From contig CAKUUG010000004.1 in NCBI GenBank assembly GCA_934692665.1, positions 1,915 through 65,914 on the forward strand: DNA of 64,000 nt. The letters are read 5' to 3'. A program made the position numbers and the translations under genes. Source of the DNA: an uncultured Candidatus Melainabacteria bacterium (GTDB taxonomy: Bacteria > Cyanobacteriota > Vampirovibrionia > Gastranaerophilales > Gastranaerophilaceae). Numbering within the stretch: position 1 is the stretch's first letter; every line of letters begins with the position of its first letter. Shown one piece after another: positions 12,548 to 45,313 of this stretch. The notes under the pieces are model-generated. The model worked only from the letters and a program-made list of their open reading frames with translations. It searched no databases and was not told the origin of the DNA.

Positions 12548-14695
12548 TTGAAAAAATTAGTTGTCGTATTATCGGTATTGTTGTTTTTAAATGGAAACTT
12601 TGGTGTCGCAAAAGAAGTTTCGCAAGCTGACATTCAACGATATAGTGCATATTATTCTAATGGTATGCAGTTTTTCAAAAATCAACAATTTTCTTCCGCA
12701 ATAACAGAATTTAAAAAAGTTCTTAGATTTTCACCCTACGACAAAACGACCCAAAATGCCCTTGCAAACACATATTACGCAAGAGCTCAGTATTATCAAA
12801 AACAAACAAAAGAATACAAAAAAGCACTTCTTGACTACAAAAGTGCGTATTTCTATGCAAAATACTGGCAAGACACTCCGCTGGATTCAAATTTGATTTC
12901 TTCATCTCTTAAAGAAATCAACGATTTAGAAAAAAGATTGGCAGTTTCGTCTTCTTTGGAATCTCGTATCCAAAGTGCAAAAATCCTAAAAGCCCAAGGG
13001 GAATTGGCTGCTGCAGGATATGAATTGGAACAGGTAAAAAATACAAAATACAAAGAAGTTGCTTATGAAAATTTGGGAAATATCTTCAAAAACCTGAACA
13101 ATCTGGCTTCTGCAATGGATTGTTACAAAAGTGCGATAGATATCAATCCAAAAAACCCAAGAACCCACTTTTGGTATGGAACAATGCTTGATGAAGCAGG
13201 AAATTTTGAAGCAAGTATGGAACAATTCAATCTTGCTTTGCAATATGGGGACAAAAGTCCTGAGTTGTTAGAAGTTCTTGAAAACAAATGGACTCAAAGC
13301 CTCGTTAAAAATCCTAACAATTCTCAAAACTATGTCAATTTGGGTGCGATTTATCAAAAACAAGGCAACTATGATGGAGCAAAAGCCCAGTATCTAAAAG
13401 CTTTGAACCTTAATCCAAATGATGAAGTTATATTGTACAATTTGGCTTCTTTGTATATCGAGCAAAAGAACTACAATGGAGCAATCGGCGTCTACAATGA
13501 GCTTTTGAGTAAAAATCCAAAAAACGCCGAAACTCTAAACTACAAAGCAGAAACATTAAAAAAACTAAACAAATTTGATGAAGCAATAAATGTTTATGAA
13601 AATATATTGGCTCTAGAACCTAACAACCAAAATGCTAAAGCGGAAATTGACGATATAATTTTGAATCATTTTTCAGGCGAAAAATTGCAAAATTACATGC
13701 AACAATTAGCTTTGAAAAACCCAAACAACTACGAAGCACAGTTTAATTATGCTCTTGAGCTTCATAAAAACAAAAATTACCAAAAAGCGACTGAATTTTA
13801 CAATAAAGCAATAGCCCTAAATTCTTCTAAAGAAGAAAGCTACATTAACCTTGCTCAGATTTATATCGAACAAAAAAATTATGAAAAAGCAAAAGAAACA
13901 ATAAATAAAGGGCTTATGATTTTGCCGAACAATTCAAAACTAAGCCAATATTTGCAAGAAGTCAAAAACTATGATGCAAATGCACAATATGACCTTGCAA
14001 CAAAATTGTTTGAACAAAAAAATTACAAAGCTGCAATTAATGAATATCTAAAAATTCAAAACAAAAACGATGATGTAAAATCAGCAATTGCCGGTTGTTA
14101 TTGGGAATTGAAAGATTATCAAAATGCCAACAAATACTATCTTGACATTTTGAAAAATCAACCAAACAATACAGAATATCTAACATCGAGTGCTTGGGCG
14201 TATTATTCTTTGAATGATTACAATAATGCAAAATCAATGGCAAATAGGGTTCTTTTGCTTGACAAAACTAATGCTGATGCAAAAAATATCATAGCAAACA
14301 TAGAAGAAATCCAAACCCAAGATATGCTGCAAACAGCTATTTCTCAATATGAAAAAGCAGATTTTACAACAGCATTGATTACATTGAACAACTTTTTATC
14401 TAAAATGCCAAACGATGAATATGGGCTATATTACAAGGCTCTAACTCTTGATGAATTAAAAAAACAACAAGAAGCAATAAAAATCTATAAAACTCTGATT
14501 TCTAAAAATCCAAATTTTGCAGAAGCGTATTATTCTTTGGCACTGGATTTGGACAATACAGAAAATTATAAAGAAGCAATAACAAACTATGAAAAATATT
14601 TGTCTCTAAAACAAGGACAAAATGATGAAACGACGAATTTTTCGACATCTAGAATAAAAGAATTAAAAGATTATTTAGCAAGTTTAAAAAAATAA
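12548..14695 (+). CDS. secreted TPR-repeat protein
   Basis: N-terminal signal-like MKKLVVVLSVLLFLNGNFGVA, then many 34-aa TPR units (A..YY..A..L.P.N). Confidence 0.85.
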   Translation: MKKLVVVLSVLLFLNGNFGVAKEVSQADIQRYSAYYSNGMQFFKNQQFSSAITEFKKVLRFSPYDKTTQNALANTYYARAQYYQKQTKEYKKALLDYKSAYFYAKYWQDTPLDSNLISSSLKEINDLEKRLAVSSSLESRIQSAKILKAQGELAAAGYELEQVKNTKYKEVAYENLGNIFKNLNNLASAMDCYKSAIDINPKNPRTHFWYGTMLDEAGNFEASMEQFNLALQYGDKSPELLEVLENKWTQSLVKNPNNSQNYVNLGAIYQKQGNYDGAKAQYLKALNLNPNDEVILYNLASLYIEQKNYNGAIGVYNELLSKNPKNAETLNYKAETLKKLNKFDEAINVYENILALEPNNQNAKAEIDDIILNHFSGEKLQNYMQQLALKNPNNYEAQFNYALELHKNKNYQKATEFYNKAIALNSSKEESYINLAQIYIEQKNYEKAKETINKGLMILPNNSKLSQYLQEVKNYDANAQYDLATKLFEQKNYKAAINEYLKIQNKNDDVKSAIAGCYWELKDYQNANKYYLDILKNQPNNTEYLTSSAWAYYSLNDYNNAKSMANRVLLLDKTNADAKNIIANIEEIQTQDMLQTAISQYEKADFTTALITLNNFLSKMPNDEYGLYYKALTLDELKKQQEAIKIYKTLISKNPNFAEAYYSLALDLDNTENYKEAITNYEKYLSLKQGQNDETTNFSTSRIKELKDYLASLKK

Positions 14696-34576: not shown

Positions 34577-34852
34577 ATGAAAGAGATTTCAGCATTAATA
34601 CATTCTTTAAACAATGAAAAAGAAATTGAAAAATTTCTTTATGAAATTTTGACCGAGACAGAAATTTCTACTTTATCAAAACGATGGCGTATTTTGAAAT
34701 TATTAGCCCAAGAGACAACCCAACGTGAAATAGCAAACAAGCTCAATGTTAGCTTGTGCAAAGTCACCCGTGGTTCTAAAATTTTAAAAAACAAAAACGC
34801 AATCACAACAAAATTTTTGAATAAAGGAGAAAAAAATGGAAACCTTGAATAA
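34577..34852 (+). CDS. Trp-repressor-like (TrpR/YerC/YecD family) DNA-binding protein
   Basis: [47 protein letters not shown] resembles the TrpR helix-turn-helix (ITRGSNSLK). The start is placed at ATG 34577 because the track ORF start contains the clpP terminator and promoter. Confidence 0.75.
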
Positions 34853-36029
34853 TATTTTACCTGACGAGAACGGATTTTTTGGCGAATTTGGCGGACAATT
34901 CGTAAATGACGAATTGAAAGAAGAATTTAAAAAAATAGAAAAAACATTTTTGTTTTTGAAAGATGACAAAAATTTCAATGATGAATTGAATTATTTGTTA
35001 AAAAATTATGTCGGACGACCAAGCCCTGTTTATTTTGCAAAAAATTTGTCCAAAAAATACGGAAACAAAATATTTTTAAAAAGAGAAGACTTAAATCACA
35101 CAGGTGCACACAAAATCAATCATGCATTGGGTGAGATTTTGCTTGCAAAAAAAATGGGTAAAACAAAAGTAATCGCAGAAACAGGTGCAGGTCAGCATGG
35201 TGTCGCAATCGCAACAGCGGCGGCTTTAATGAATTTGGAATGCGATATTTACATGGGCGAAATTGATATTAAAAAAGAAAAACCAAACGTCGATAGAATG
35301 AAAATTTTGGGTGCAAATGTAATTTGTGTTTCATCAGGCACTAAAGCATTAAAAGACGCTGTAGATAGTGCATTTGTTGCGTATTTGAAAGAATACAAAA
35401 GTGCAATTTATGCGATAGGTTCTGCTGTTGGGCCTCATCCGTATCCAATGATGGTTGAATATTTTCAATCTATTATTGGAAAAGAAGCAAAAAAACAATT
35501 TTTTGAACAAACAAACAAAAATCCGGATTTTGTAGTTGCTTGTGTTGGTGGCGGCTCTAATGCTATCGGATTATTTAGCGGATTTTTGAATGAAAAAGAT
35601 GTAAATATTATTGGTGTAGAGCCTTTGGGAAAGGGTTCTAAAATAGGTCAAAATGCCGCAAGCATTACTTTTGGAACAACGGGGATAATCCATGGTTTTA
35701 GATGTAATTTGCTTCAAAATGAAAAAGGTGAAATCCAAGACGCATACAGTATCGCAAGTGGGTTGGACTATCCGGGGGTAGGTCCAAAGCATTGTTATTT
35801 AAATAAAATTGGAAGAGTAAAATATGATACGATAGATGATAAAGAAGCAGTTGAAGCGTTTTATGAATTGTCATCTTTAGAAGGTATTATTCCTGCTCTA
35901 GAAAGTTCTCATGCTGTTGCTTATGCTATAAAAATGTCAAAGAATATGAAAAACAAAAATATTTTAGTAAATCTTTCAGGCAGAGGCGACAAAGATATTG
36001 AATTTGTTTTAAATAATTACAAAAAATAA
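34836..36029 (+). CDS. trpB: tryptophan synthase beta chain
   Basis: [23 protein letters not shown] and GGGSNAIG motifs; 397 aa. Confidence 0.95.
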
Positions 36030-36066
36030 CACATCAAAATTAATTCCTTTTTATTATTTATGTCAT

Positions 36067-36094
36067 AAAAAACCCCTGAACTTTTTCAGGGGTT
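36067..36094. terminator. hairpin terminator between convergent trpB and the GH57 branching enzyme gene
   Basis: CCCCTGAA-CTTT-TTCAGGGG flanked by an A run. The T run reads on the minus strand. Confidence 0.65.
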
Positions 36095-36113
36095 AAAGTT
36101 ATATTTAATTTTG

Positions 36114-37883
36114 TTATTTTATTGCACCAAGTGCTTTAAATTCGTTTATTCTTTTTTCGCCATATAATGGAACAAGACGTTTTTCTTGTTGAGGTATCAA
36201 ACCTTCATCGATAGGCAAATAAACTCTATAATCAATGTCTGCAAAGCAGTTGTCTATTGATTCAATTTCAGACAATTTCTTTTCGTCGATTGAATTGTTT
36301 TCTATCATATCTGCTATTGTTTCAAAGCGAGCAACGTGTTCTCTGAATCTGTCTGTTGCATAGTCTTTTGCTTGCCATGTTGTAATCAAGAACGGCCAAT
36401 CAGAACTTTGCAACAACAATTCTTCTCTTGCAAGTTGGTTTAAAGCACGTTTCAACAGATTGTCCGATGGAACATCTTCGTATTTTGAAACGATATCAAT
36501 TATACGTTTTTCTGTTGCATGAATAATAGGCCACATCCATTCTGTCAAGTGGTTTTGCCATACCCAGAAATGTCCACCTTGTCCCCAAGATGATTCAGGA
36601 ATTTGAATAGCCTCTGTTGGCGGATGAGCTGCCAAATATTCTCCGGCTGTCATCATTTCTACTTCCGGAACATATTTGTTTAATTTTTTAATTACTTGTT
36701 TAATAAATTCGATACCTTCAAACCACCAGTGTCCGTACAATTCTGTATCAAATGACACCATTACAAGACCTTCTTTGCCATTGTGAGAATTTTTGTAATC
36801 ATTCAACAAATGGTAAATAAGATTTGTGTAGTGATCAGAGTTTGAATTAACTTGGTTCATTGCGAGAACTGGGTCGTAGAGCATTTTGTCGCCTAGGTCA
36901 GTAGTAGAGGAAGTAATTCTCCAGTAGTGCATACCGGAATTGCAGTCTTTTCTGTGAAATTCTCTATATACACCATCTCCTGGGTATCCATCTGCTGCTG
37001 ACCAAACTTGAAATCCTGCTCTATCGTTTCTACCCATCACGGCAACTTGTGCATCAGGTAACCAATAAGCACTATAAGTGTCATATCCGGTTGCCTCTCT
37101 TTTTGGTAATGGTATATACTCAATATTTCCGTAAACTCCGATATTTCTACGGTTTCCGATAGAGTTTCCACCTTCTATTACGTGTGATTCGGTGAAAAAG
37201 TATTCTATGTCATTATTCTGTAGTGTTACTTCTATAGCAGGACGCCATTTTTTCTTTCCGTCTTTTCCTGTGTATTCGTAACCTTGTCTGTATGCACATT
37301 CAGGAAGCCAGCACCCTTTTGCTTTTTTGCCAAAAAGTTTTTTTGTTGTGTCTGAACCTACTTTGAATTGTGCATTTAAGTTTGTATCTGTTGCAAGAAG
37401 TGGTGAAAAACCGTGAGTTGCACCTGATGTTGTAATTTCTATGCAACCCAAGTCTTGCATCCTTTTGAATCCTGCAATCAAATCTTTGTTAAATTTGTTG
37501 ATAAATAAATCTTTTATTCTGTTATACCAGTCAAAATAATACTTTGCCAAGTATTTCAAATGTTGACTGTGTGCGACTTCTGGGTCAGGATATCTTTCCA
37601 AATCCTCAGAAACAGCTTTTATACGTGAATCAAGATAGTCAATAAAACCTTGTTTCAAATGTTCGTCATTAAGTTGTTCTGCCAAAATCGGAGTAATCCC
37701 AACGGTTAATTTTGCTTTGATGCCTTCGTCGTATAATTCAGAAATCATGTTTAATAATGGAACATAAGTTTCTTCCATACATTCATACAAGCACTCTTCC
37801 CCAAATGGCCACATTCCTGCCATTCTATAATATGGAAGGTGCGAGTGCAACATAAAAACAAATTGCCCTACTTTTTGTGTCAT
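36114..37883 (-). CDS. GH57-family 1,4-alpha-glucan branching enzyme-like protein
   Basis: FVFMLHSHLPYY N-terminus, FDTELYGHWWFEG and a C-terminal helical domain, as in GH57 branching enzymes (DUF1957 type). Confidence 0.8.
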   Translation of the reverse strand: MTQKVGQFVFMLHSHLPYYRMAGMWPFGEECLYECMEETYVPLLNMISELYDEGIKAKLTVGITPILAEQLNDEHLKQGFIDYLDSRIKAVSEDLERYPDPEVAHSQHLKYLAKYYFDWYNRIKDLFINKFNKDLIAGFKRMQDLGCIEITTSGATHGFSPLLATDTNLNAQFKVGSDTTKKLFGKKAKGCWLPECAYRQGYEYTGKDGKKKWRPAIEVTLQNNDIEYFFTESHVIEGGNSIGNRRNIGVYGNIEYIPLPKREATGYDTYSAYWLPDAQVAVMGRNDRAGFQVWSAADGYPGDGVYREFHRKDCNSGMHYWRITSSTTDLGDKMLYDPVLAMNQVNSNSDHYTNLIYHLLNDYKNSHNGKEGLVMVSFDTELYGHWWFEGIEFIKQVIKKLNKYVPEVEMMTAGEYLAAHPPTEAIQIPESSWGQGGHFWVWQNHLTEWMWPIIHATEKRIIDIVSKYEDVPSDNLLKRALNQLAREELLLQSSDWPFLITTWQAKDYATDRFREHVARFETIADMIENNSIDEKKLSEIESIDNCFADIDYRVYLPIDEGLIPQQEKRLVPLYGEKRINEFKALGAIK

Positions 37884-38157
37884 AATTTTATAAGCCTCCG
37901 ATTTTTTAATTTATATTATATTTATATCACAAATTATAATAAAAAATAATCATTTAGAATTAGTACATGAGAATAAATTTACTAAAATTAATATAAGTAT
38001 AAAGAAGTACTATTTTAGTGCATTGTGCGAATGTTATTTTTTAATTAAATTATTTTTTAAAAAATAGCAAAAAAAATTCTTTACAGTTTTTGTACAACAA
38101 AATAGTGTTGTTTTTTAATAAAAAAAATGCTATCATCTATCAAAACGAGGAAAAAAT

Positions 38158-38475
38158 ATGGTAGATAACAGAGGTATCACTTCAATTTCTGGAATGTTTA
38201 AAGCTGACAATGCTTCTGCAAACAAAATGTCAGATGAAAAGCAAGGTCAAGGCGGAGAATATTTCGCACAAGAGATGCCTGAAGAAGAAGATCAAATTCA
38301 ACAAACACCATACCAAGACCGCTCTGCACAATTGAGGGCGTCATTGGATAGTCTTGCAATGATGAATGCCGGTTCTATAAATTTTAAACACATTAAATAC
38401 AACAAAAAAACAAAAGAAGAAAAAGAGCAAAAAGATTCTGAAGAAGAAATAGAAGAATCAGTTTTTGATGAATAA
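38158..38475 (+). CDS. hypothetical acidic protein (105 aa)
   Basis: GAGGA RBS. Low-complexity E/K-rich C-terminus. No family recognised. Confidence 0.5.
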   Translation: MVDNRGITSISGMFKADNASANKMSDEKQGQGGEYFAQEMPEEEDQIQQTPYQDRSAQLRASLDSLAMMNAGSINFKHIKYNKKTKEEKEQKDSEEEIEESVFDE

Positions 38476-38492
38476 AATAACAAACAAAAAAT

Positions 38493-38527
38493 AAAAAAGA
38501 GATTAGTAAATTCTAATCTCTTTTTTT
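38493..38527. terminator. bidirectional terminator
   Basis: GAGATTAG-TAAATT-CTAATCTC flanked by A and T runs. Confidence 0.7.
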
Positions 38528-38543
38528 AATGTAAAATTTGTGA

Positions 38544-39788
38544 TTAATCATTTTTGTTTGCGTCGATTTTTGTTCCATCCGCCAATTTTTTGTAAACCAT
38601 ATTGCCATCGACATCATAGTGAATTTCTGTGCCGTCAGGATAAATTTCGTCTCTCAAATTGCCGTTCATGTTGTAGTGTTTTGTGACTCTTTTTTCTGTT
38701 ATTTCGTAGGTTACTCTACCTTTGTTATCAAAATGCTTTTCAGAAGCATCTGTATATATGTCGGTCAATTTTCCTGCTTCGTTGTAGAATTCTTTGACTC
38801 CGTCAGGAAATTCTATCATTGTCAAATTGTTTGTTTTCTTGTCATAGCGTTTTATTATGCCATCTGCTGTAATTTCATTTAACAAATTTCCATTGGCATA
38901 GTATGTTCTTGATGAGCCATCAGGAAATTCGATACCAGTTAGTCTTCCGTCTTTTCCGTATGAAAGTCTGGGTTTGTCTAAATGTTCATGACGCATTTGT
39001 TTTGTTTCTTTAATGATTTCACCATCTTTGTCATAGAATTTTTCTGTACCACAAGGAAGGACTTTGCGACGCAATCCTCCGGCTTCATTGTAGTATTTTT
39101 TAGTTCCATCGTGAAATTCTTCCATTACTAGTTTGCCTGTTGTTTCATCGTAACGTTTTGTTGTTCCGTCAACGAAAAGCTCACTTGCGATTTTACCGTT
39201 TTCGTGGAATATTTTTAATGTTCCATCAGGAGTTCCCAAAGAAGATAACTTGCCATTTGGTCGATATGTAAATCTGGTTTCACCGGAAGAAATGTCATAG
39301 ATGCCACTGTTTTCTACTTTATACATTTTGCCGTTTCTAATAGAATATTCTTTTGCAAAATTCTTCGAGCCACTTCTTTCGCTTGATTGCAAAACGCCTT
39401 TTTCATATACCAAACTTATATCATCACCGTCTTTTAGAGCACCTTTTACTTCGCCTGAAAAAGGTTTTCCGTTTGGATAAGTGCAAACACCTTTTTTGAT
39501 TTGGACATCACCCAAAGATGCTTTGTTGACAAATGTATTGACAGCTTTTTGCGAAGCTTCCAAATCTACTGAAGGCAATTTTGTACTAGGTGTAGTTTTG
39601 ACAAAACTATTAGAAAAAACGTTTCTTATTGCATCAAAAAGACCTATTTTCTTTGATGCAAAGCTCAAATTGTTGCTGTTGTTTACATATTGAGCTTCTT
39701 TTGGTACAGATTGATTGTTATTTTTTGCTTTTGCTGTTTGATAAGAATAATTTGAAAAATTGTTGACGGCATGAATCATAATAAACAC
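38544..39788 (-). CDS. beta-hairpin repeat protein (YD-repeat / MORN-variant-like)
   Basis: 414 aa. At least 10 repeats of about 19-20 aa, e.g. DGTTKRYDETTGKLVMEEF, HDGTKKYYNEAGGLRRKVL, CGTEKFYDKDGEIIKE, PDGVKEFYNEAGKLTDIY. Confidence 0.7.
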   Translation of the reverse strand: MFIMIHAVNNFSNYSYQTAKAKNNNQSVPKEAQYVNNSNNLSFASKKIGLFDAIRNVFSNSFVKTTPSTKLPSVDLEASQKAVNTFVNKASLGDVQIKKGVCTYPNGKPFSGEVKGALKDGDDISLVYEKGVLQSSERSGSKNFAKEYSIRNGKMYKVENSGIYDISSGETRFTYRPNGKLSSLGTPDGTLKIFHENGKIASELFVDGTTKRYDETTGKLVMEEFHDGTKKYYNEAGGLRRKVLPCGTEKFYDKDGEIIKETKQMRHEHLDKPRLSYGKDGRLTGIEFPDGSSRTYYANGNLLNEITADGIIKRYDKKTNNLTMIEFPDGVKEFYNEAGKLTDIYTDASEKHFDNKGRVTYEITEKRVTKHYNMNGNLRDEIYPDGTEIHYDVDGNMVYKKLADGTKIDANKND

Positions 39789-39863: not shown

Positions 39864-40436
39864 TTAATAATTCTTACTTTTTTTCAGATATTTTTTGTAT
39901 AAATCTATGTAAAATTCTTTGCTGAAGAAATACCCGATTTGTTTAAATGGGATTGGAATTTTTTTGGTTACAAAATTAAAGAAAAGAAAAATTATGTATG
40001 AAGGAAGTATTGTAAGTGCAATATCCATCCCACCCGCTTCATCTGCATCATAATTTAATTTAAACGTATGCAGATTCAAATAAGAAAAATAATAATAAGC
40101 ATAACTTATTAATAACAAACACAAAAAGCTCTTCCAAAATTTAAGTTTGGAAAAATACTTAAGTATCCCACATAATTTTGCAATAACATAAGTATTAAAC
40201 ACAAAACAAACAATGCCAAATATTATAAAAGCAAATATATCTATTCCATTACCTGTAGGTTCAGGATTCAAAAAAGCATCAATTTTAGAAAAACAATTTA
40301 CGGCAACTCCCATTATAGGACCTGTAATGTATTCAAATATAAACAGTGCAAGCTCTCTCATCACAACAAGAAAAATTAAAGAACGAATTATTCCTTCTAA
40401 TAAAATTTTTTGTTTGTCTGTTAAATTTAGTTCCAT
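39864..40436 (-). CDS. multi-TM membrane protein, immunity-like (copy A)
   Basis: 190 aa with 4-5 hydrophobic helices. Its ATG lies inside the last 10 nt of the upstream toxin-like ORF. About 83 percent identical (hand alignment) to the 189-aa copy at 41552-42121. Confidence 0.75.
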   Translation of the reverse strand: MELNLTDKQKILLEGIIRSLIFLVVMRELALFIFEYITGPIMGVAVNCFSKIDAFLNPEPTGNGIDIFAFIIFGIVCFVFNTYVIAKLCGILKYFSKLKFWKSFLCLLLISYAYYYFSYLNLHTFKLNYDADEAGGMDIALTILPSYIIFLFFNFVTKKIPIPFKQIGYFFSKEFYIDLYKKYLKKSKNY

Positions 40437-40452
40437 ATTTCATCCAATATAT
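39864..40452 (-). repeat. left arm of ~590-bp inverted duplication
   Basis: The first 83 nt and last ~125 nt of the coding region are identical to the right arm, plus 16 nt upstream (ATATATTGGATGAAAT). Confidence 0.85.
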
Positions 40453-41377
40453 CTTTTGGTATTATTATATCATGGATTGTGAAAAATGGTTTTAGAACAC
40501 CTTTTTCCATTTGGCTAGCTCCGGCTCTAATCAATTTGCTTTTTTCATTTTTATTAAAATCATAAGTATCATACATTTTGATATGCAGGTTACCTTTTTC
40601 ATCCAGAAAAATATTTCTAAAATCAGCTTTTCCTATTGCATTGTGAAAATTATTTTTTAGACCAAGTCCCATTTTGTTGTGTTCCGGAAATCCGGCTGAA
40701 AATTCTCCTTTTTGTAAAATTTCTTGTTTGTGACTTTTAACCATATTCAAAAAATCTTCGTTTTGGATTAGTCTTTTGACCGGTTCTGAATTTGGTTTGA
40801 AATAATAACCTTTGATTTTATTTATATCAAAATTGTAATCTTTAAATTGTTGGGATATTTTTTCTTTTAAATATTTTTTTTCAGATTCCACTTTTGAATC
40901 ATTGTAATTGTCTAATGAAATTGTGTCTTTAATATAATTTCTATCTTTCATATCAATACCATGAGCCAAATCTAACATACCTGCCCCATCAAGTCCTGCA
41001 ATTACTTTAGCAAACAAATCTAAATGTTCATAATTTTTCCCGATAATTGATTCTATTCTTTCTTGAGTTACGTATTTTTTTCCTAATTTTTTAATCTTTT
41101 CTTTTGCAAGTTTTTTAAGCTCATCTATTGGAGCATACAAAACCTTCGCCGGAGTCGTTACATCTTTTAGGATATTCAAAAGATGGCTTCTGTATTCTTC
41201 TTTAGATTTTACTTTTTTAGATAATTTGCCATATAAAATATCTGCAGGTGATTGTTTTGTTTCAGTTTTTTCAATTCTACCCTTCAAAACACCTTCGCTA
41301 TCGGTGTTGCTTTCTCCATCACTAAATGTAAATCTTCCTATTCTGTCACGTGGATGTTTACTTTCGTCCCAAGTCAT
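40427..41377 (-). CDS. toxin-like hypothetical protein with N-terminal WDESKHPRDRIGRF motif
   Basis: AGGAGG RBS 7 nt upstream of ATG 41377 (MTWDESKHPRDRIGRFTF...), so the track start at 41401 is less likely. No signal peptide, no Cys. C-terminal ~200 aa unrecognised. Confidence 0.7.
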   Translation of the reverse strand: MTWDESKHPRDRIGRFTFSDGESNTDSEGVLKGRIEKTETKQSPADILYGKLSKKVKSKEEYRSHLLNILKDVTTPAKVLYAPIDELKKLAKEKIKKLGKKYVTQERIESIIGKNYEHLDLFAKVIAGLDGAGMLDLAHGIDMKDRNYIKDTISLDNYNDSKVESEKKYLKEKISQQFKDYNFDINKIKGYYFKPNSEPVKRLIQNEDFLNMVKSHKQEILQKGEFSAGFPEHNKMGLGLKNNFHNAIGKADFRNIFLDEKGNLHIKMYDTYDFNKNEKSKLIRAGASQMEKGVLKPFFTIHDIIIPKDILDEIWN

Positions 41378-41535
41378 ATTTTTTCCTCCTTCTAGGTACA
41401 TTTTAATTATGAACTATTTTTTTAAAAAACGCATCAAAATAGCCAAAACTCTGGACTGTAGTCCAAAATATCAGGAGTCTGGATTGATAAATTGCAAAAA
41501 TATGTTATAATCAGCAAAAAGATGAAAAACAGTGA

Positions 41536-42121
41536 ATATATTGGATGAAATATGGAACTAAATTTAACAGACAAACAAAAAATTTTATTAGAAGGAATAA
41601 TTCGTTCTTTAATTTTTCTTGTTGTGATGAGAGAATTATACTCTTTTATATTTGAATGCATAACGGGTCCTGTAATGGGAGTTGTTATAAATTGCGTTTC
41701 TGAGATTGATGCTTTTTTGAATCCGGAACCTACAGGCAATGGAATGGATATATATGCTTTTATAATATTTTGTATTATTTGCATGGTATCTAATACTTAT
41801 GTTGTTGCAAAATTATGTGGGATACTTAAGTATTTTTCCAAATTTAAATTTTGGAAGAGCTTTTTGTGTTTGTTATTAATAAGTTATGCTTGTTATTATT
41901 TTTCTTATTTAAATCTACATACGTTTAAACTAAATTTTGATACAAACGACACTCCTGGAGGTTTTTATGCTCCGTCGATAATTCCTGTGTATTTGATTTT
42001 TCTTTTCTTTAATTTTGTAACCAAAAAAATTCCAATCCCATTTAAACAAATCGGGTATTTCTTCAGCAAAGAATTTTACATAGATTTATACAAAAAATAT
42101 CTGAAAAAAAGTAAGAATTAG
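41536..42121 (+). repeat. right arm of ~590-bp inverted duplication
   Basis: See the left arm. Divergence is concentrated in one loop (NFDTNDTPGGFYAPSIIPVY versus NYDADEAGGMDIALTILPSY). Confidence 0.85.
41552..42121 (+). CDS. multi-TM membrane protein, immunity-like (copy A', orphan)
   Basis: Paralog of 39864-40436 in inverted orientation. Preceded by 16 nt identical to the 3' tip of the toxin-like gene. Confidence 0.75.
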   Translation: MELNLTDKQKILLEGIIRSLIFLVVMRELYSFIFECITGPVMGVVINCVSEIDAFLNPEPTGNGMDIYAFIIFCIICMVSNTYVVAKLCGILKYFSKFKFWKSFLCLLLISYACYYFSYLNLHTFKLNFDTNDTPGGFYAPSIIPVYLIFLFFNFVTKKIPIPFKQIGYFFSKEFYIDLYKKYLKKSKN

Positions 42122-42127
42122 TAAAAA

Positions 42128-45100
42128 TTATTGTTCAATGTATCCAATCAATTTTTCAAGCACTGTCTGGATTGAAGTCATTTTGTTTTCTATGATTTCT
42201 ACTCTGTTGGATAGCATTTTTGTTTGCGTCATATTTTCGTAGAAAATATCAATAAACTGGTTAGGATTGAAACTTTCGGTTTGTGCTTGCGAAAGCAGTT
42301 CAACCTTTTTGTTTAATTCTGCAATTCTTACATCTTGGTTTTGAGAATTTTTAATCAAAAGTTTAAGAGCGTTTTCGATTTTGCCATTAAATTCTAAAAC
42401 ATCTCTTTTTGATTTTTCGCTTTGGACAAGACGAGTCTTTATGTCTTCAAAACCTTTTTGTTCTAGTTCATCTATTCTTTCTGCAACGTCATCAATTTTT
42501 ATTGAAACATCTTTAAACCAGCCTGTTAGATTTCCAATTTCTGTTTCAACATCACGATTTACTTTTATGTTTTCGATAGACATTGCTCTCAATTCAACAA
42601 CTTTTTCAAAAACGCTTCTTAATTCGTCATTGTTTGCTGAGTGCTTTTCTATAGCTAATTTTATTTTTGCAAGGTCGGATTCAATATCTTCCAGTGTATA
42701 AGAATAGTTTGAATTTTCTTCGTTTGTTCTTATTTTTCTGATAGAATTTTCTATTTTTGAAAATTCGCCTTCCAAGTTTTCTTTTATTTCTTGAGAAATA
42801 TTGGCTTTCAAAAATTCAAAATTAGAAAGATATTCTTGAACTTTTGCCGACAATTCGTCGATATTTGAGTTTTGTGTATCCAACAAAGATGTATCTTTTG
42901 GTTTTTCAACCAAAATAGAGATTTTTTGGATATTGTCTTTTAGTTTTTGGTCAATATCTTCTTTTGTTGAATTGAAATATTCTTTTAGTTCAGAACTTCC
43001 TTCTTCTAAATCTTGTATTTTTTCAGAAATTTTTGATATAGCATTCAAAATCGAAGCTATGTTTTTGCTTTCTTCAATGTTTGAAATCTTCATTGACAAA
43101 TTAGAAGTAGAAGTTTGAATTTCTTCCAACAATTCTTTTGCATTGTGAATTTGTTGAAGATTTGTTCTGTCGATTTTTGTTTCTATATCAACAACAGTTT
43201 CTCTTAGTGATTTTTTTTCAACAATATTGTCCAAATCAGCCCCGATATAACTATCGAGCAATTTGTCGACTTTTGCTTCAAAAGATGAAATCGAAGTTTT
43301 GTTGTTTTTTCCGATATTAGAAATGCCTTCTAAAATATCACCCCTAATTCCATCCAAGATATCTTGAGTGTGAGCGTTGTTGGAGTTTATTGCATCGTTG
43401 ATTTTTTCAACAGCATCTTGCGTAAAATTCTCCAAGCCGACTTCTAGATTTGTTACTTTGTCGGTGACTTTGTCGAGATTGTCAATTTGTTTTAAAGAAA
43501 AATCTTGAAAATCTGTTTTGAAATTTACAAATTCTTTTTGTATTCTTTCATTTAATGATTCAACATTGTCAATCAAATGGTCAGAAAGCTTTTGTAAATC
43601 GACTTTTAGGGTATCAAGAGTTTCTATATTTATTGTTTTTGTGTCGTCTTGAATTTTGTCTACAGCATCCTTTAAATTGCTCTGAAGCGTTGCTATAGTG
43701 TCATTAAACGAGCTTCTTACTTGGCTTAAGTTGTTGCTGTTTTCTGTAACAACATGGGTTCTAAATATTTCCAATCTGTCGGCAATTGTCGGAATGTTTT
43801 CTGAAATCTGAGTCAAAATTTGCATAGAAGAAACTGAATTTATGTCATTCAGACTTGTTTGCATGTTTTGGATTGAAGATTGAATTTCAAAAACAGTGTC
43901 TCTTAAATTGTCAGACAATTCTTTTATGTTTTTTCCGATATCTTGGTCTTTTAGTTCTGCTAAAGCACGTTCAATCGGTTCTTGCAGGATTTTTATGTTG
44001 CCTGAATTTATTGCTGACAAATCTTTTTTGAAATTCGTCAAACCCATGATGAGATTTTTGATTTCTTCTTTTGCAGCGTTTAAATATCTTTCAAAATCCT
44101 GTCTATGATTGTGCGATTTGTACAAAATTTCGTCATTAATCAGTCCGTGGACGTTTTTTAGTTCGTTTCCGAGTCCTTTTACTGTTTCTGTAAGGTTTTG
44201 TACTTCTTCTTTTGAAGAAATTACGCTGCCTGTGAGACTTTGTACGTTGTTGCCTATTGCATTGACTGAAGTATTTAAATTGAACACTTCAGTTTTGACT
44301 CCGGAGTCGTCGCTTGCAGTGTTAACTACTTTTTGTATTTCGTACTTAACACTTTCCAATTGATTTTTTACTTCTGCAGATAGTGCCTGAAGTTCTATTT
44401 TTGGGTCTATTGTTTTGATGTTGTCTTGTATGGTTTGCATTGCAACGTTGAGATTTTGAACGTTTTGCAATGCATCATTGAAGATGTTTTCTCTATGTTG
44501 AATAGCATCAATCAAACCCGTTAAGTCTTTGTATTTTGAATCAATAATAGCAATAGCCGAGATAACGGAATTTACGTTTCCTGTGATTGTATCTAAGTCG
44601 CTTTTTATTGATAAATATTGCTCTCTAGAGGAATTTTGTTTAATTTGCGACAAAAAGTCTGCAAAATTTTTGTTTAAGGTGATTGTAATGTTTTCAAACC
44701 CATGGGAAAAATTTGCAAAATTTTCGGTTAATTTTGCGATTTGCAAAGATGTGTCATTGTTTTTTTGAAGTTCAATATTATTAAATATTTTTTGTAAAGT
44801 TACATCTTGTGCACTAAGTTTTGAAAATGTTACAGAAGTATCATTCAAGAGTCTGGAAATTTCTGCTGCCATTTTTGGATTTTGGCTGTTTTGGGCATTC
44901 ATTAAATTTCTGACTGAATCTTCTAAAGTTTTTATTAGTTGATTTGTTTGACCGTATTTAACTTCAATGGTTTTTCTAAACTCATTGACAAGGGTTGTTG
45001 CTATTTTTTCACTTGTTACATTATTAAGATTTTCATATCTTTGAGAAAGGCTGGTTAGAGCGTTGTATATTTCTCCTTGTGACATTGATGATTTGGCATA

Positions 45101-45157
45101 CAGACCTTTGATGGCTTCAGTTAACTGGTCTAATCTGATTTCTACACTATCTACCAT
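42128..45157 (-). CDS. giant coiled-coil-rich protein (~1009 aa)
   Basis: Heptad-like, N/I/K/E/S/L/Q-rich sequence throughout, with no TM, Walker or enzymatic motif. ATG at 45157 (MVDSVEIRL) is preferred over the TTG at 45208. Confidence 0.7.
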   Translation of the reverse strand: MVDSVEIRLDQLTEAIKGLYAKSSMSQGEIYNALTSLSQRYENLNNVTSEKIATTLVNEFRKTIEVKYGQTNQLIKTLEDSVRNLMNAQNSQNPKMAAEISRLLNDTSVTFSKLSAQDVTLQKIFNNIELQKNNDTSLQIAKLTENFANFSHGFENITITLNKNFADFLSQIKQNSSREQYLSIKSDLDTITGNVNSVISAIAIIDSKYKDLTGLIDAIQHRENIFNDALQNVQNLNVAMQTIQDNIKTIDPKIELQALSAEVKNQLESVKYEIQKVVNTASDDSGVKTEVFNLNTSVNAIGNNVQSLTGSVISSKEEVQNLTETVKGLGNELKNVHGLINDEILYKSHNHRQDFERYLNAAKEEIKNLIMGLTNFKKDLSAINSGNIKILQEPIERALAELKDQDIGKNIKELSDNLRDTVFEIQSSIQNMQTSLNDINSVSSMQILTQISENIPTIADRLEIFRTHVVTENSNNLSQVRSSFNDTIATLQSNLKDAVDKIQDDTKTINIETLDTLKVDLQKLSDHLIDNVESLNERIQKEFVNFKTDFQDFSLKQIDNLDKVTDKVTNLEVGLENFTQDAVEKINDAINSNNAHTQDILDGIRGDILEGISNIGKNNKTSISSFEAKVDKLLDSYIGADLDNIVEKKSLRETVVDIETKIDRTNLQQIHNAKELLEEIQTSTSNLSMKISNIEESKNIASILNAISKISEKIQDLEEGSSELKEYFNSTKEDIDQKLKDNIQKISILVEKPKDTSLLDTQNSNIDELSAKVQEYLSNFEFLKANISQEIKENLEGEFSKIENSIRKIRTNEENSNYSYTLEDIESDLAKIKLAIEKHSANNDELRSVFEKVVELRAMSIENIKVNRDVETEIGNLTGWFKDVSIKIDDVAERIDELEQKGFEDIKTRLVQSEKSKRDVLEFNGKIENALKLLIKNSQNQDVRIAELNKKVELLSQAQTESFNPNQFIDIFYENMTQTKMLSNRVEIIENKMTSIQTVLEKLIGYIEQ

Positions 45158-45313
45158 TGGTTTACTTTTTTCCTTTTCCCCTTTTGTTATTCTAACAGAA
45201 AAATACAAATAATTTAAAAATTGTAATATTAATTAATATTTTTATTGGGTTGTTCATTATATTTTTTTTAGATAAAATTGAGTGTATAAAAAAGAAAATT
45301 TGAGGAAAATATT

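Follow-up and report, generated by a model that had tools for sequence, protein, structure and literature searches.

Which function may be assigned to a short toxin-like gene that lies between two inverted copies of a membrane protein gene in an otherwise ordinary chromosome? This question is raised by a locus at positions 39864-42124 of a stretch of 64,000 nucleotides (nt) from an uncultured Candidatus Melainabacteria bacterium of the Gastranaerophilales (contig CAKUUG010000004.1; the whole stretch is called the window in the following). The locus comprises an effector gene, the membrane protein gene imm1, which overlaps the effector 3' end, and imm2, an inverted paralog of imm1 on the other side. 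Gastranaerophilales are common, uncultured gut relatives of cyanobacteria, and in the literature no paper has been found that describes an interbacterial weapon for them. We consider it rather probable that the locus represents a chromosomal polymorphic-toxin-like effector-immunity module, which has so far been observed almost only in metagenome-assembled genomes (MAGs) labelled Gastranaerophilales or Melainabacteria.

Architecture of the Locus

The effector gene (40427..41377, minus strand) encodes a protein of 316 amino acids (aa). The longest open reading frame (ORF) extends to 41401 (324 aa), and the ATG at 41377 is almost certainly the true start, because an AGGAGG ribosome-binding site (RBS) precedes it (41385-41390, minus strand) and the homologs, with hardly an exception, start M-x-W-x-E-x-x-HPR. 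Read from this ATG, the protein opens MTWDESKHPRDRIGRFTF (MTWDESKHPRD...). The last 10 nt of the gene contain the ATG of imm1 (39864..40436, minus strand), which encodes a membrane protein of 190 aa with ~four predicted transmembrane (TM) helices. Its termini are both predicted to lie inside, and it is the putative immunity partner of the effector. On the other side, imm2 (41552..42121, plus strand) encodes 189 aa, and 158/190 residues (83%) are identical between the two membrane proteins. Both genes are embedded in the arms of an inverted repeat of 589 nt each, whose ~91% identity is far beyond chance and which a repeat finder has resolved into three blocks of 147 nt (95%), 305 nt (89%) and 99 nt (100%). 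The left arm (39864..40452) consists of imm1 and 16 nt of the effector 3' end beyond the overlap, with perfect blocks at 40354-40452 (inner, 99 nt) and 39868-39992 (outer, 125 nt), and the right arm (41536..42124) consists of a 16-nt remnant of the toxin tip and imm2, with the corresponding perfect blocks at 41536-41634 and 41996-42120. Enclosed between the arms is a unique and potentially invertible segment of 1083 nt (40453..41535), which carries the effector body and both divergent promoter regions.

This anatomy had been described in the original prediction, and the ORF, repeat and domain scans have reproduced its three ORFs with their 10-nt overlap, the inverted 83% paralog, the ~1.1-kb spacing and a YD/MORN-repeat gene as neighbour; the predicted RBS and 316-aa start are likewise borne out by the AGGAGG and by the homolog starts. 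Also as predicted, the first 83 nt of the two membrane protein ORFs are identical, as are their last 125 nt (39868-39992 and 41996-42120; ~125 nt had been stated), and the identity of the arms reaches 16 nt 5' of the imm2 ATG (41536-41551), into what are the final toxin codons (..ILDEIWN*). The proposed remnant of the toxin 3' end is thus real but small: no more than 26 nt of the conserved tip remain at imm2, 16 of them 5' of its ATG and the rest overlapping its 5' end, and the copy in the window brings no alternative toxin domain. Less strictly than predicted, the differences between the two proteins cluster in one loop. They are indeed densest at residues 129-148, in the loop between TM3 and TM4, but scattered changes at residues 30-85 add to these, so that both predicted periplasmic loops are touched.

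The Membrane Protein Family and Its Linkage to the Effector

The gene order of the window recurs at other loci. In a linkage scan, 66 loci have been collected by tblastn and inspected, where enough downstream sequence was available, for a match to the TM family within 450 bp. Complete genes for the effector C-terminal domain have been found to be followed by a TM-family gene in 28/37 cases, several others being followed by different multi-TM ORFs, and remnants of the toxin tip are followed by such a gene in 19/28, the tips of these 19 comprising 20-120 codons. Tip remnants beside TM genes are accordingly common across Gastranaerophilales. The TM gene tracks the C-terminal domain whatever N-terminus precedes it (as in contig L007), and an SAA-type effector with the same N-terminus as the window effector is followed by a 74-aa signal-anchored protein instead of a TM-family gene. 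Copies of the membrane protein also accumulate: in L021, seven TM-family matches, as many as four of them in a row, are scattered among three toxin genes; L002 contains a pair of inverted orphans that each retain ~100 nt of the tip; and in L071 a 29-aa tip ORF, MEKGNLKPFFTIHEII.., overlaps an orphan TM gene downstream of an SAA effector pair. In the original prediction imm2 was taken for a displaced cassette of a toxin C-terminus and its immunity gene. This is supported by the tip-plus-TM remnants of many genomes, whereas the copy in the window departs from it, as it is not silent, retains a tip of 26 nt and possesses its own promoter.

The family comprises 63 members and matches no Pfam domain. 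Kyte-Doolittle analysis of imm1 and imm2 has revealed three clear hydrophobic segments and a weaker fourth at residues ~100-118; together with the distribution of charges (positive-inside rule), this fits a topology of four TM helices with N- and C-terminus inside. Of the 4-5 helices originally proposed, the multi-TM character is retained and the number is ~four by hydropathy, the fourth being weak. N-terminus, core and C-terminus are conserved throughout the family alignment, and two stretches, at residues ~40-80 and ~128-146, are hypervariable and coincide with the predicted periplasmic loops. Loop alleles are apparently shared between species: the imm2 loop is similar to that of protein P0117, and P0115 and P0116 have loops similar to that of imm1.

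The N-Terminal Module

The first ~100 aa of the effector (residues 1-101; 41075..41377, minus strand) form a module that is composed of a W-x-E-x-x-HPR-x3-G-x-F motif (residues 3-17; 41327-41371, minus strand), a disordered linker, in which AlphaFold2 (AF2) confidence is low at residues 19-42, and helices with the patterns ILY, LLxILG and ATPxxxLY. A profile of this module, searched against 1.84 billion representative proteins, has retrieved 765 matches. Among the short proteins of this set the whole module is present and located N-terminally, and it is joined to Peptidase_M23 (7 proteins), Phage_lysozyme (6 proteins), SAA-like (3 proteins), GH108 plus PG_binding_3 (2 proteins), DUF6973 (2 proteins) or a class-3 lipase (Lipase_3; 1 Pfam match, and 4 sequences with G-x-S-x-G). 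Giants of 700-7334 aa match via the ~25-residue motif only, 3-18 times per protein. The giants with repeated motifs carry ART-PolyVal, Zeta_toxin or Phage_Mu_F domains and are therefore assigned to the polyvalent proteins; 18 matches occur in P0175 (7334 aa) and 16 in P0176 (5313 aa). In P0175, the one giant that has been read through, D-W-D-E-x-K-HPR-G-E-H-G-[KR]-[FW] stands between repeated ART-like and other domains, and this regular punctuation suggests a processing or docking site.

The motif pattern is also present in >600 stretches of the viral database IMG/VR, where the ORFs checked have turned out to be portal proteins, portal-MuF fusions and minor-head or DNA-pilot proteins. Examples of phage contigs with the HPR-G-x-F motif are L079:6507-8453, L082:6534-8453 and L090:1850-4564. 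In portal proteins it is found near the C-terminal end, at ~aa 495-504 of ~640, and in a 905-aa fusion protein at the portal-MuF junction. A tblastn search of GenBank phages with the 22-aa motif, a query too short for this purpose, has given one marginal match. The occurrence of the motif in multidomain proteins of phages and mobile elements, which the original prediction had given in the form W-x-E-x-K-HPR-x3-G-R-F, is thus confirmed by the 765-protein profile search and by the portal and MuF matches of IMG/VR. In the literature, full-text searches with several spellings have returned no paper that describes it, and it is not mentioned in the papers on polyvalent proteins (PMC5512222), MuF toxins (PMC5576092) and polymorphic toxins (PMC3482391).

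Effectors with the same N-terminus and SAA-like or lysozyme C-termini cluster together in L071:412-2402 and L072:3594-6998. Next to each of them a small protein (74 aa and 134 aa) is encoded that starts with a signal anchor or a leader of lipoprotein type and could be its immunity protein, and a HigB/HigA-like pair (Gp49/HTH_3) is located near these clusters.

The C-Terminal Domain

The putative toxic domain (residues 106-316; 40430..41062, minus strand) is characterised by the motifs DxAGMLDLAH, K173, SEPxxR, GNLHxKxYDTYDFN and LKPFFTIHDIII. AlphaFold2 has modelled it from a 58-sequence alignment with high confidence (predicted local distance difference, pLDDT, 93.1; predicted template modelling score, pTM, 0.90) as a mixed alpha/beta fold with a six-stranded sheet. 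Residues D136, K173, S197, R202, D252, D270, T271, D273 and N275 are invariant or nearly so across the family, the last four of them within Y-D-T-Y-D-F-N, and this pattern of conservation looks enzymatic. Foldseek has found no significant match (E <0.001) of the domain model in the PDB (best E 0.14, TM <0.2) or in BFVD (best E 0.02, TM 0.23), and none for the full-length model, for which the result is dominated by floppy helices. The C-terminal domain of the Bacteroides fragilis type VI secretion system (T6SS) effector BtpeA has appeared as a recurrent weak match (E 0.05-0.17, TM 0.19) and has been discarded as not usable. A PDB sequence search with a 54-sequence profile has given 0 matches, scans of Pfam, PHROGs and NCBIfam have returned nothing significant for the effector and the TM proteins, and the domain has not been found in the 2.9 million viral contigs of IMG/VR. 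The prediction of an unrecognisable C-terminal domain is upheld by the Pfam, NCBIfam, PDB and BFVD searches, and the effector has, as predicted, no signal peptide.

The domain has also been observed behind unrelated N-termini. P0075, for example, opens with the C-x-x-C...HPNCRC end of a MuF domain; the match is partial and lies below the Pfam cut-off (E 0.0026, 18.9 bits vs 29.6). In L007:10001-14688 an island inserted between mlaEF and mlaD/lpxK carries the domain with a truncated, MuF-like N-terminus in front of it. Its own TM gene comes next, and then two cassettes, each with a 95-nt toxin tip before an unrelated 251-aa membrane protein, and an HPNCRC-coding remnant is found at 13833.

Distribution and Genomic Setting

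In total, 111 effector homologs have been found. The MAGs that encode the relatives are mostly labelled Gastranaerophilales, Melainabacteria or Vampirovibrio, together with two Gammaproteobacteria and one Clostridium, and they contain several copies of the module each. Insertion sites vary among housekeeping contexts, such as rplT/DUF711, the neighbourhood of a redox enzyme, the inside of the mla operon and, in the window, murF/trpB. A toxin gene enclosed by inverted TM genes is found again across the closest clade, including the 77%-identical relative L009 with the same 1083-nt spacing; the identity of the arms amounts to only 81-91% in L009, L011 and L002. An identical arrangement, including imm2, is present on an independent contig from a Hadza gut metagenome. 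A sister species with 77% identity has the module immediately next to trpB, oriented as in the window.

Compared with this sister species, the window carries ~3.8 kb extra between trpB and imm1 (L096:1949-2797 vs window 34836-39788), namely a GH57 gene, a 105-aa gene and the MORN/YD gene. The spacing from trpB thus differs between the two, and an insertion or deletion has therefore occurred at the edge of the module. The window itself is ordinary chromosome with trpB, GH57 enzymes, murF-mraY and downstream ORFs, an AcrB/OEP efflux pair, topA and ATP synthase genes. Among those of its ORFs that have been scanned against Pfam (not every one), no phage, secretion-system or recombinase gene has been detected, and none adjoins the locus; Rfam and tRNA scans have given nothing near it. 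The locus (39864-42124) is mildly atypical in G+C content (GC), its 27.6% standing against 32.1% in the window as a whole and ~35% in the trpB/GH57 flank. On one side, the neighbouring gene for 414 aa (38544-39788, minus strand) matches MORN_2, RHS_repeat and YD_repeat, and farther out (38158-38526) a highly acidic 105-aa protein is encoded, behind which lies the one terminator-like hairpin that the region possesses (38493-38526). On the other side, a gene for a 1026-aa protein (42128-45208, minus strand) abuts the locus, with only weak, sub-threshold matches to Apolipoprotein and to SMC/Rad50-type helical or coiled-coil families. The MORN/YD-repeat gene and the 1026-aa coiled-coil gene have been considered as parts of the system and rejected, because they are not conserved neighbours of the module in relatives; the acidic 105-aa protein is not conserved beside it in other species either.

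In a related strain (L070:1-1006, 99.3% identical downstream), 816 nt of foreign DNA are fused in frame to the last 63 codons of the toxin, with the junction at window position 40616 and with imm1 and the MORN gene following the fused toxin end. The foreign DNA has a GC of 37-39% vs 31% and encodes the N-terminal half of a tyrosine integrase. The fusion could be an insertion or deletion joint of a mobile element in the toxin gene, or a chimeric scaffold. A similar fusion is seen in P0100, in which the N-terminal part of glgB is joined to the last ~80 aa of the toxin.

Recombination Between the Arms

The codon-wise comparison of imm1 and imm2 has uncovered a mosaic. At the two ends of the arms (first 99 nt, last 125 nt) no differences are seen, whereas the synonymous divergence (dS) is 0.33 in codons 29-127 and 1.17 in the loop codons 128-149 (middle 0.33 to 1.2); in the diverged regions the ratio of nonsynonymous to synonymous divergence (dN/dS) is 0.29-0.47. 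Estimated from the divergence of the middle, the chance of finding no synonymous change in both end blocks is ~4 × 10−5. Since no synonymous change is seen at the ends, as opposed to the diverged middle, a recent homogenisation of the arm ends, through recombination or gene conversion, is indicated. An import of the diverged middle, with the conserved ends serving as substrates, is the alternative.

Two fragments from one sample, L094:1-1309 and L095:1-1315, each end with the 3' 738 nt of the toxin and a TM gene; their flanks differ (flagellin/DnaB vs PNPase), and both break inside the shared N-terminal module. They are 93.6% identical, and zero-mismatch tracts of up to ~390 nt alternate with clustered divergence in the toxin linker helix and in TM loop 1. 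The interpretation as one toxin joined to two immunity genes has been rejected, since the base-by-base comparison has identified two mosaic paralogous loci.

The orientation of the unique segment in related genomes, which the original prediction had proposed as a check, is that of the window in the other contigs of the species (one shown, the rest grouped as similar) and, relative to trpB, in the sister species; a flipped junction is seen in L068. L068 is a 2172-bp contig of 1.66x coverage from a different Hadza sample, in which 40951-41535 is joined directly to 40452 and continues down to 38866, so that the toxin 5' part and the promoter region are followed by imm1 and the MORN gene; this is the junction predicted after a flip. 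L068 shares 9/9 single-nucleotide polymorphisms (SNPs) with L070, the contig of the integrase fusion, which is of the same strain lineage. It lacks the two tip SNPs of L070, and the crossover has therefore been mapped between 40425 and 40253. A junction within or just beyond the repeat is what homologous recombination predicts; mis-threading of the under-sampled 99-nt repeat in a de Bruijn assembly is plausible as well. Further orientations could be hidden, because contigs with the same neighbouring proteins have been grouped together. A scan of JGI metagenomes for evidence on orientation, with a 28-mer from the toxin start, has yielded 0 matches. Occasional inversion of the 1.1-kb segment by RecA-type recombination is plausible on these grounds.

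Putative Divergent Promoters

Within the unique segment, a promoter-like site of the form TTGATA-16 nt (with TG)-TATAAT faces imm2, ~40 nt 5' of its ATG (41484..41511, plus strand). With 11/12 consensus matches it is the best sigma-70-like site in 38.4-42.4 kb, and an equivalent TTGAxA-16/17-TATAAT is kept in L009 and L012, that is, in three species including the window. In the opposite direction, a block GCGxTTTTTxxAAAAATAGTTCATAAT (41406..41437, minus strand) lies just 5' of the toxin RBS and ends in a −10-like CATAAT at 41406-41411. It is near-invariant in the window, L009, L068 and L012, has not been called by the consensus scan, and is probably the promoter and/or operator of the toxin. 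The region that separates these two elements includes TGGACTGTAGTCCA (41452..41465), a perfect 6-2-6 palindrome, which shows one right-arm mismatch in L009 (77% relative), is not conserved in L012 (58% relative) and may be a regulator-binding site or operator. As the imm2 promoter and the layout are conserved, the locus is best described as a divergent pair of a stand-alone immunity-like gene and a toxin-immunity operon.

Proposed Mechanism and Competing Explanations

Regarding these features together, one may postulate that the N-terminal module, with its polyvalent-protein motif, serves as a handle for delivery or processing, and that the 210-aa C-terminal domain would damage the cell envelope from the periplasmic side. 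We infer damage to the envelope from the peptidoglycan hydrolases and lipases to which this N-terminus is joined in sister proteins. The coupled four-TM protein imm1 would act as the cognate immunity protein and probably neutralise the toxin via its two hypervariable periplasmic loops. imm2 would be a second immunity gene with its own strong divergent promoter and different loop alleles, which probably protects against a toxin variant from other strains. The conserved junction of toxin 3' and immunity 5' ends and the immunity 3' end may provide the substrates for recombination, by which the arms appear to have recently exchanged sequence at both ends in the window lineage. Homologous recombination across the arms might occasionally flip the 1.1-kb toxin segment, leaving the toxin sequence unchanged.

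Several observations weigh against such an effector-immunity module. In the 64-kb window and in the inspected flanks of relatives, no secretion apparatus, phage head genes or recombinase have been found, and the effector carries no signal peptide. Its C-terminal domain has no recognisable catalytic fold or homolog in the databases searched, and the label 'toxin' is consequently owed to its context. A partial Mantel comparison of the variable toxin helix with the TM loops, on 8 non-redundant pairs, is not significant, and dN/dS values below 1 between imm1 and imm2 mean that diversifying selection is not demonstrated by this ratio. The flipped orientation is represented by one 2.2-kb contig at 1.66x with its junction inside the 99-nt perfect repeat, possibly an artefact; the other contigs of the species (one shown, the rest grouped as similar) and the sister species have the orientation of the window.

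Three other explanations have been weighed. A cell-envelope enzyme could be paired with a holin-like or exporter-like partner, for autolysis, wall remodelling or release of cell content, the paralogs then being ordinary duplicates. The sister proteins that share the N-terminus include lysozymes, M23 endopeptidases and GH108 enzymes, activities typical of endolysins and autolysins; none of them has a signal peptide, so that a membrane partner would be needed to reach the wall, and the TM protein is small and multi-spanning like holins, while the motif is common to phage proteins. What the TM family tracks, however, is the C-terminal domain, and neither the wall hydrolases nor the N-terminal module; runs of as many as four TM paralogs in a row, tip-bearing orphans and hypervariable outside loops fit immunity, the distribution is patchy and multi-copy at variable sites, and the order of an enzyme and then a membrane protein with overlapping codons is the usual effector-immunity order. 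A pair of this kind, with no role as an interbacterial toxin, is improbable. We give as little credit to a programmed invertible switch, in which a flip couples the toxin to either immunity allele and the strong promoter to the other, as in phase variation. The inverted layout conserved in the closest clade, with its identical 1083-nt spacing in the 77% relative, the homogenised inner 99-nt and outer 125-nt blocks around a diverged middle, the predicted junction 41535-40452 in L068 and the position of both promoters on the invertible segment would all suit such a switch. It is unlikely because no invertase or tyrosine recombinase gene lies near the locus, the arms are gene-length homologous repeats instead of short recombinase sites, and a flip alters neither the toxin nor the promoters of the TM genes, so that the predicted change of phenotype is small; moreover, the arms of L009, L011 and L002 are only 81-91% identical, all long contigs are in one orientation, and L068, at 1.66x, could be an assembly artefact. 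Very improbable, finally, is a decaying relic without competitive role, that is, a unit of motif and domain left by a lost prophage together with a membrane protein of the superinfection-exclusion type. In its favour, the motif typifies polyvalent, portal and MuF proteins, a MuF-like N-terminus in truncated form is found in one relative, the local GC is slightly low (27.6% vs 32.1%), and integrase DNA abuts the toxin gene in a related strain; but the ORFs are intact, RBS and promoter elements are conserved across three species, >100 full-length homologs exist under purifying selection, the C-terminal domain is absent from 2.9 million viral contigs, and no phage genes occur in any inspected flank.

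For the effector-immunity module, the polyvalent-protein motif leads to a more far-reaching proposal on delivery, which taken as a whole is rather unlikely. W-x-E-x-x-HPR-x3-G-x-F might be a portable tag that docks cargo on a machine of the phage-head or portal type, or marks it for processing. The effectors of Gastranaerophilales would then be 'monovalent' polyvalent proteins, encoded in the chromosome and loaded in trans into phage-like particles, and these particles (a resident prophage, a gene-transfer agent or a tailocin-like device) would inject wall- or membrane-attacking enzymes into neighbours. The membrane immunity alleles would define kin groups, and the inverted arms would serve to shuffle immunity alleles and pair them anew around a fixed toxin.

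Implications

The module would extend the polymorphic-toxin theme to a new phylum with new protein families, provided that the toxicity deduced from its context is real. Three unannotated families have been defined: a delivery-type N-terminal module, a confidently folded toxin-like domain with no structural neighbour, and a four-TM immunity-like family. Short chromosomal effectors are now linked to the inter-domain motif of polyvalent proteins, which gives a testable handle on the role of this widespread motif. If the flip between the arms is true, immunity would be re-paired by homologous inversion, unlike the deletion or displacement in contact-dependent growth inhibition (CDI) and Rhs loci. 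If the module is not toxic, the finding reduces to a lineage-specific gene pair.

Comparison With Known Systems

Shufflons and invertons are defined by short inverted recombination sites with a dedicated invertase or tyrosine recombinase. The arms of the window are instead 589-nt paralogous genes, with no recombinase among the scanned ORFs or adjoining the locus, and in these respects the module does not correspond to a site-specific invertible element; a second orientation is represented by the low-coverage contig L068. The immunity proteins of pore-forming colicins (e.g., Cai of colicin A) and of membrane-targeting T6SS effectors are multi-TM proteins encoded beside their toxins. imm1 and imm2 resemble the colicin immunity proteins, which are inner-membrane proteins of ~180-190 aa with four TM helices, termini inside and a toxin-adjacent gene, although the topology is predicted here, the TM family lacks sequence similarity to them, and its variability is found in the loops and not in the TM helices. 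The C-terminal domain is predicted to be globular alpha/beta, in contrast to the helical pore-forming bundle with its hydrophobic hairpin, and by this predicted fold the module is not of the colicin pore-former type.

In the acquired interbacterial defence islands of gut Bacteroidales (PMC13402684), toxin-less immunity genes accumulate beside effector-immunity pairs, as they do in L071, L021 and L002, where the toxin-less immunity-like genes presumably protect against non-self toxins. The islands differ from the present loci in phylum and protein families; no integrase-driven gene-cassette structure is seen here, and the orphans keep toxin tips.

With the polyvalent proteins of phages and conjugative elements (Iyer et al. 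2017, PMC5512222) the effector shares W-x-E-x-x-HPR-x3-G-x-[FW], which in the giants precedes each of up to 18 domains. It has one domain and not 2-15, being a single unit of motif plus cargo, and its module is chromosomal and paired with an immunity-like gene, so that it does not fall among the polyvalent proteins. The MuF toxins of temperate phages (Jamet et al. 2017, PMC5576092; Zhang et al. 2012) are similar in their effector-plus-immunity organisation and in the HPR-G-x-F motif that occurs in MuF, portal and minor-head proteins, and P0075 begins with the end of a MuF domain. The module is nevertheless not a MuF toxin: the window effector has no match to Phage_Mu_F (PF04233), the locus lies outside any prophage, flanked by trpB, GH57, murF and mraY and with no portal or terminase neighbours, and the Pfam-assigned C-terminal domains of its sisters are envelope-directed and neither nucleases nor (p)ppApp synthetases.

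The closest likeness is to the polymorphic toxins (CDI, Rhs and MafB; Zhang et al. 2012, PMC3482391). In common with these, a constant N-terminus is combined with alternative C-terminal domains; a small gene specific for the C-terminal domain follows directly downstream, which is observed here as genomic linkage only; extra immunity genes stand behind remnants of toxin 3' ends, as in the 19 tip-plus-TM cassettes of other genomes; and several loci per genome occupy variable chromosomal sites. Unlike them, the module is free of RHS, filamentous or other repeats, and its whole effector measures only 316 aa. The remnant in the window is a conserved 26-nt tip with no alternative toxin domain, the extra immunity-like gene is inverted, upstream and under its own promoter, and N-terminal module, C-terminal domain and TM family are all without a Pfam or NCBIfam model. 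None of the known N-terminal domains for a secretion route (type II, V, VI or VII secretion system, Photorhabdus virulence cassette (PVC), PrsW, MuF) has been detected in the effector with Pfam and NCBIfam; its motif links it to phage-head proteins. By its architecture the module takes its place among the polymorphic toxin systems, with an effector that is a toxin by prediction.

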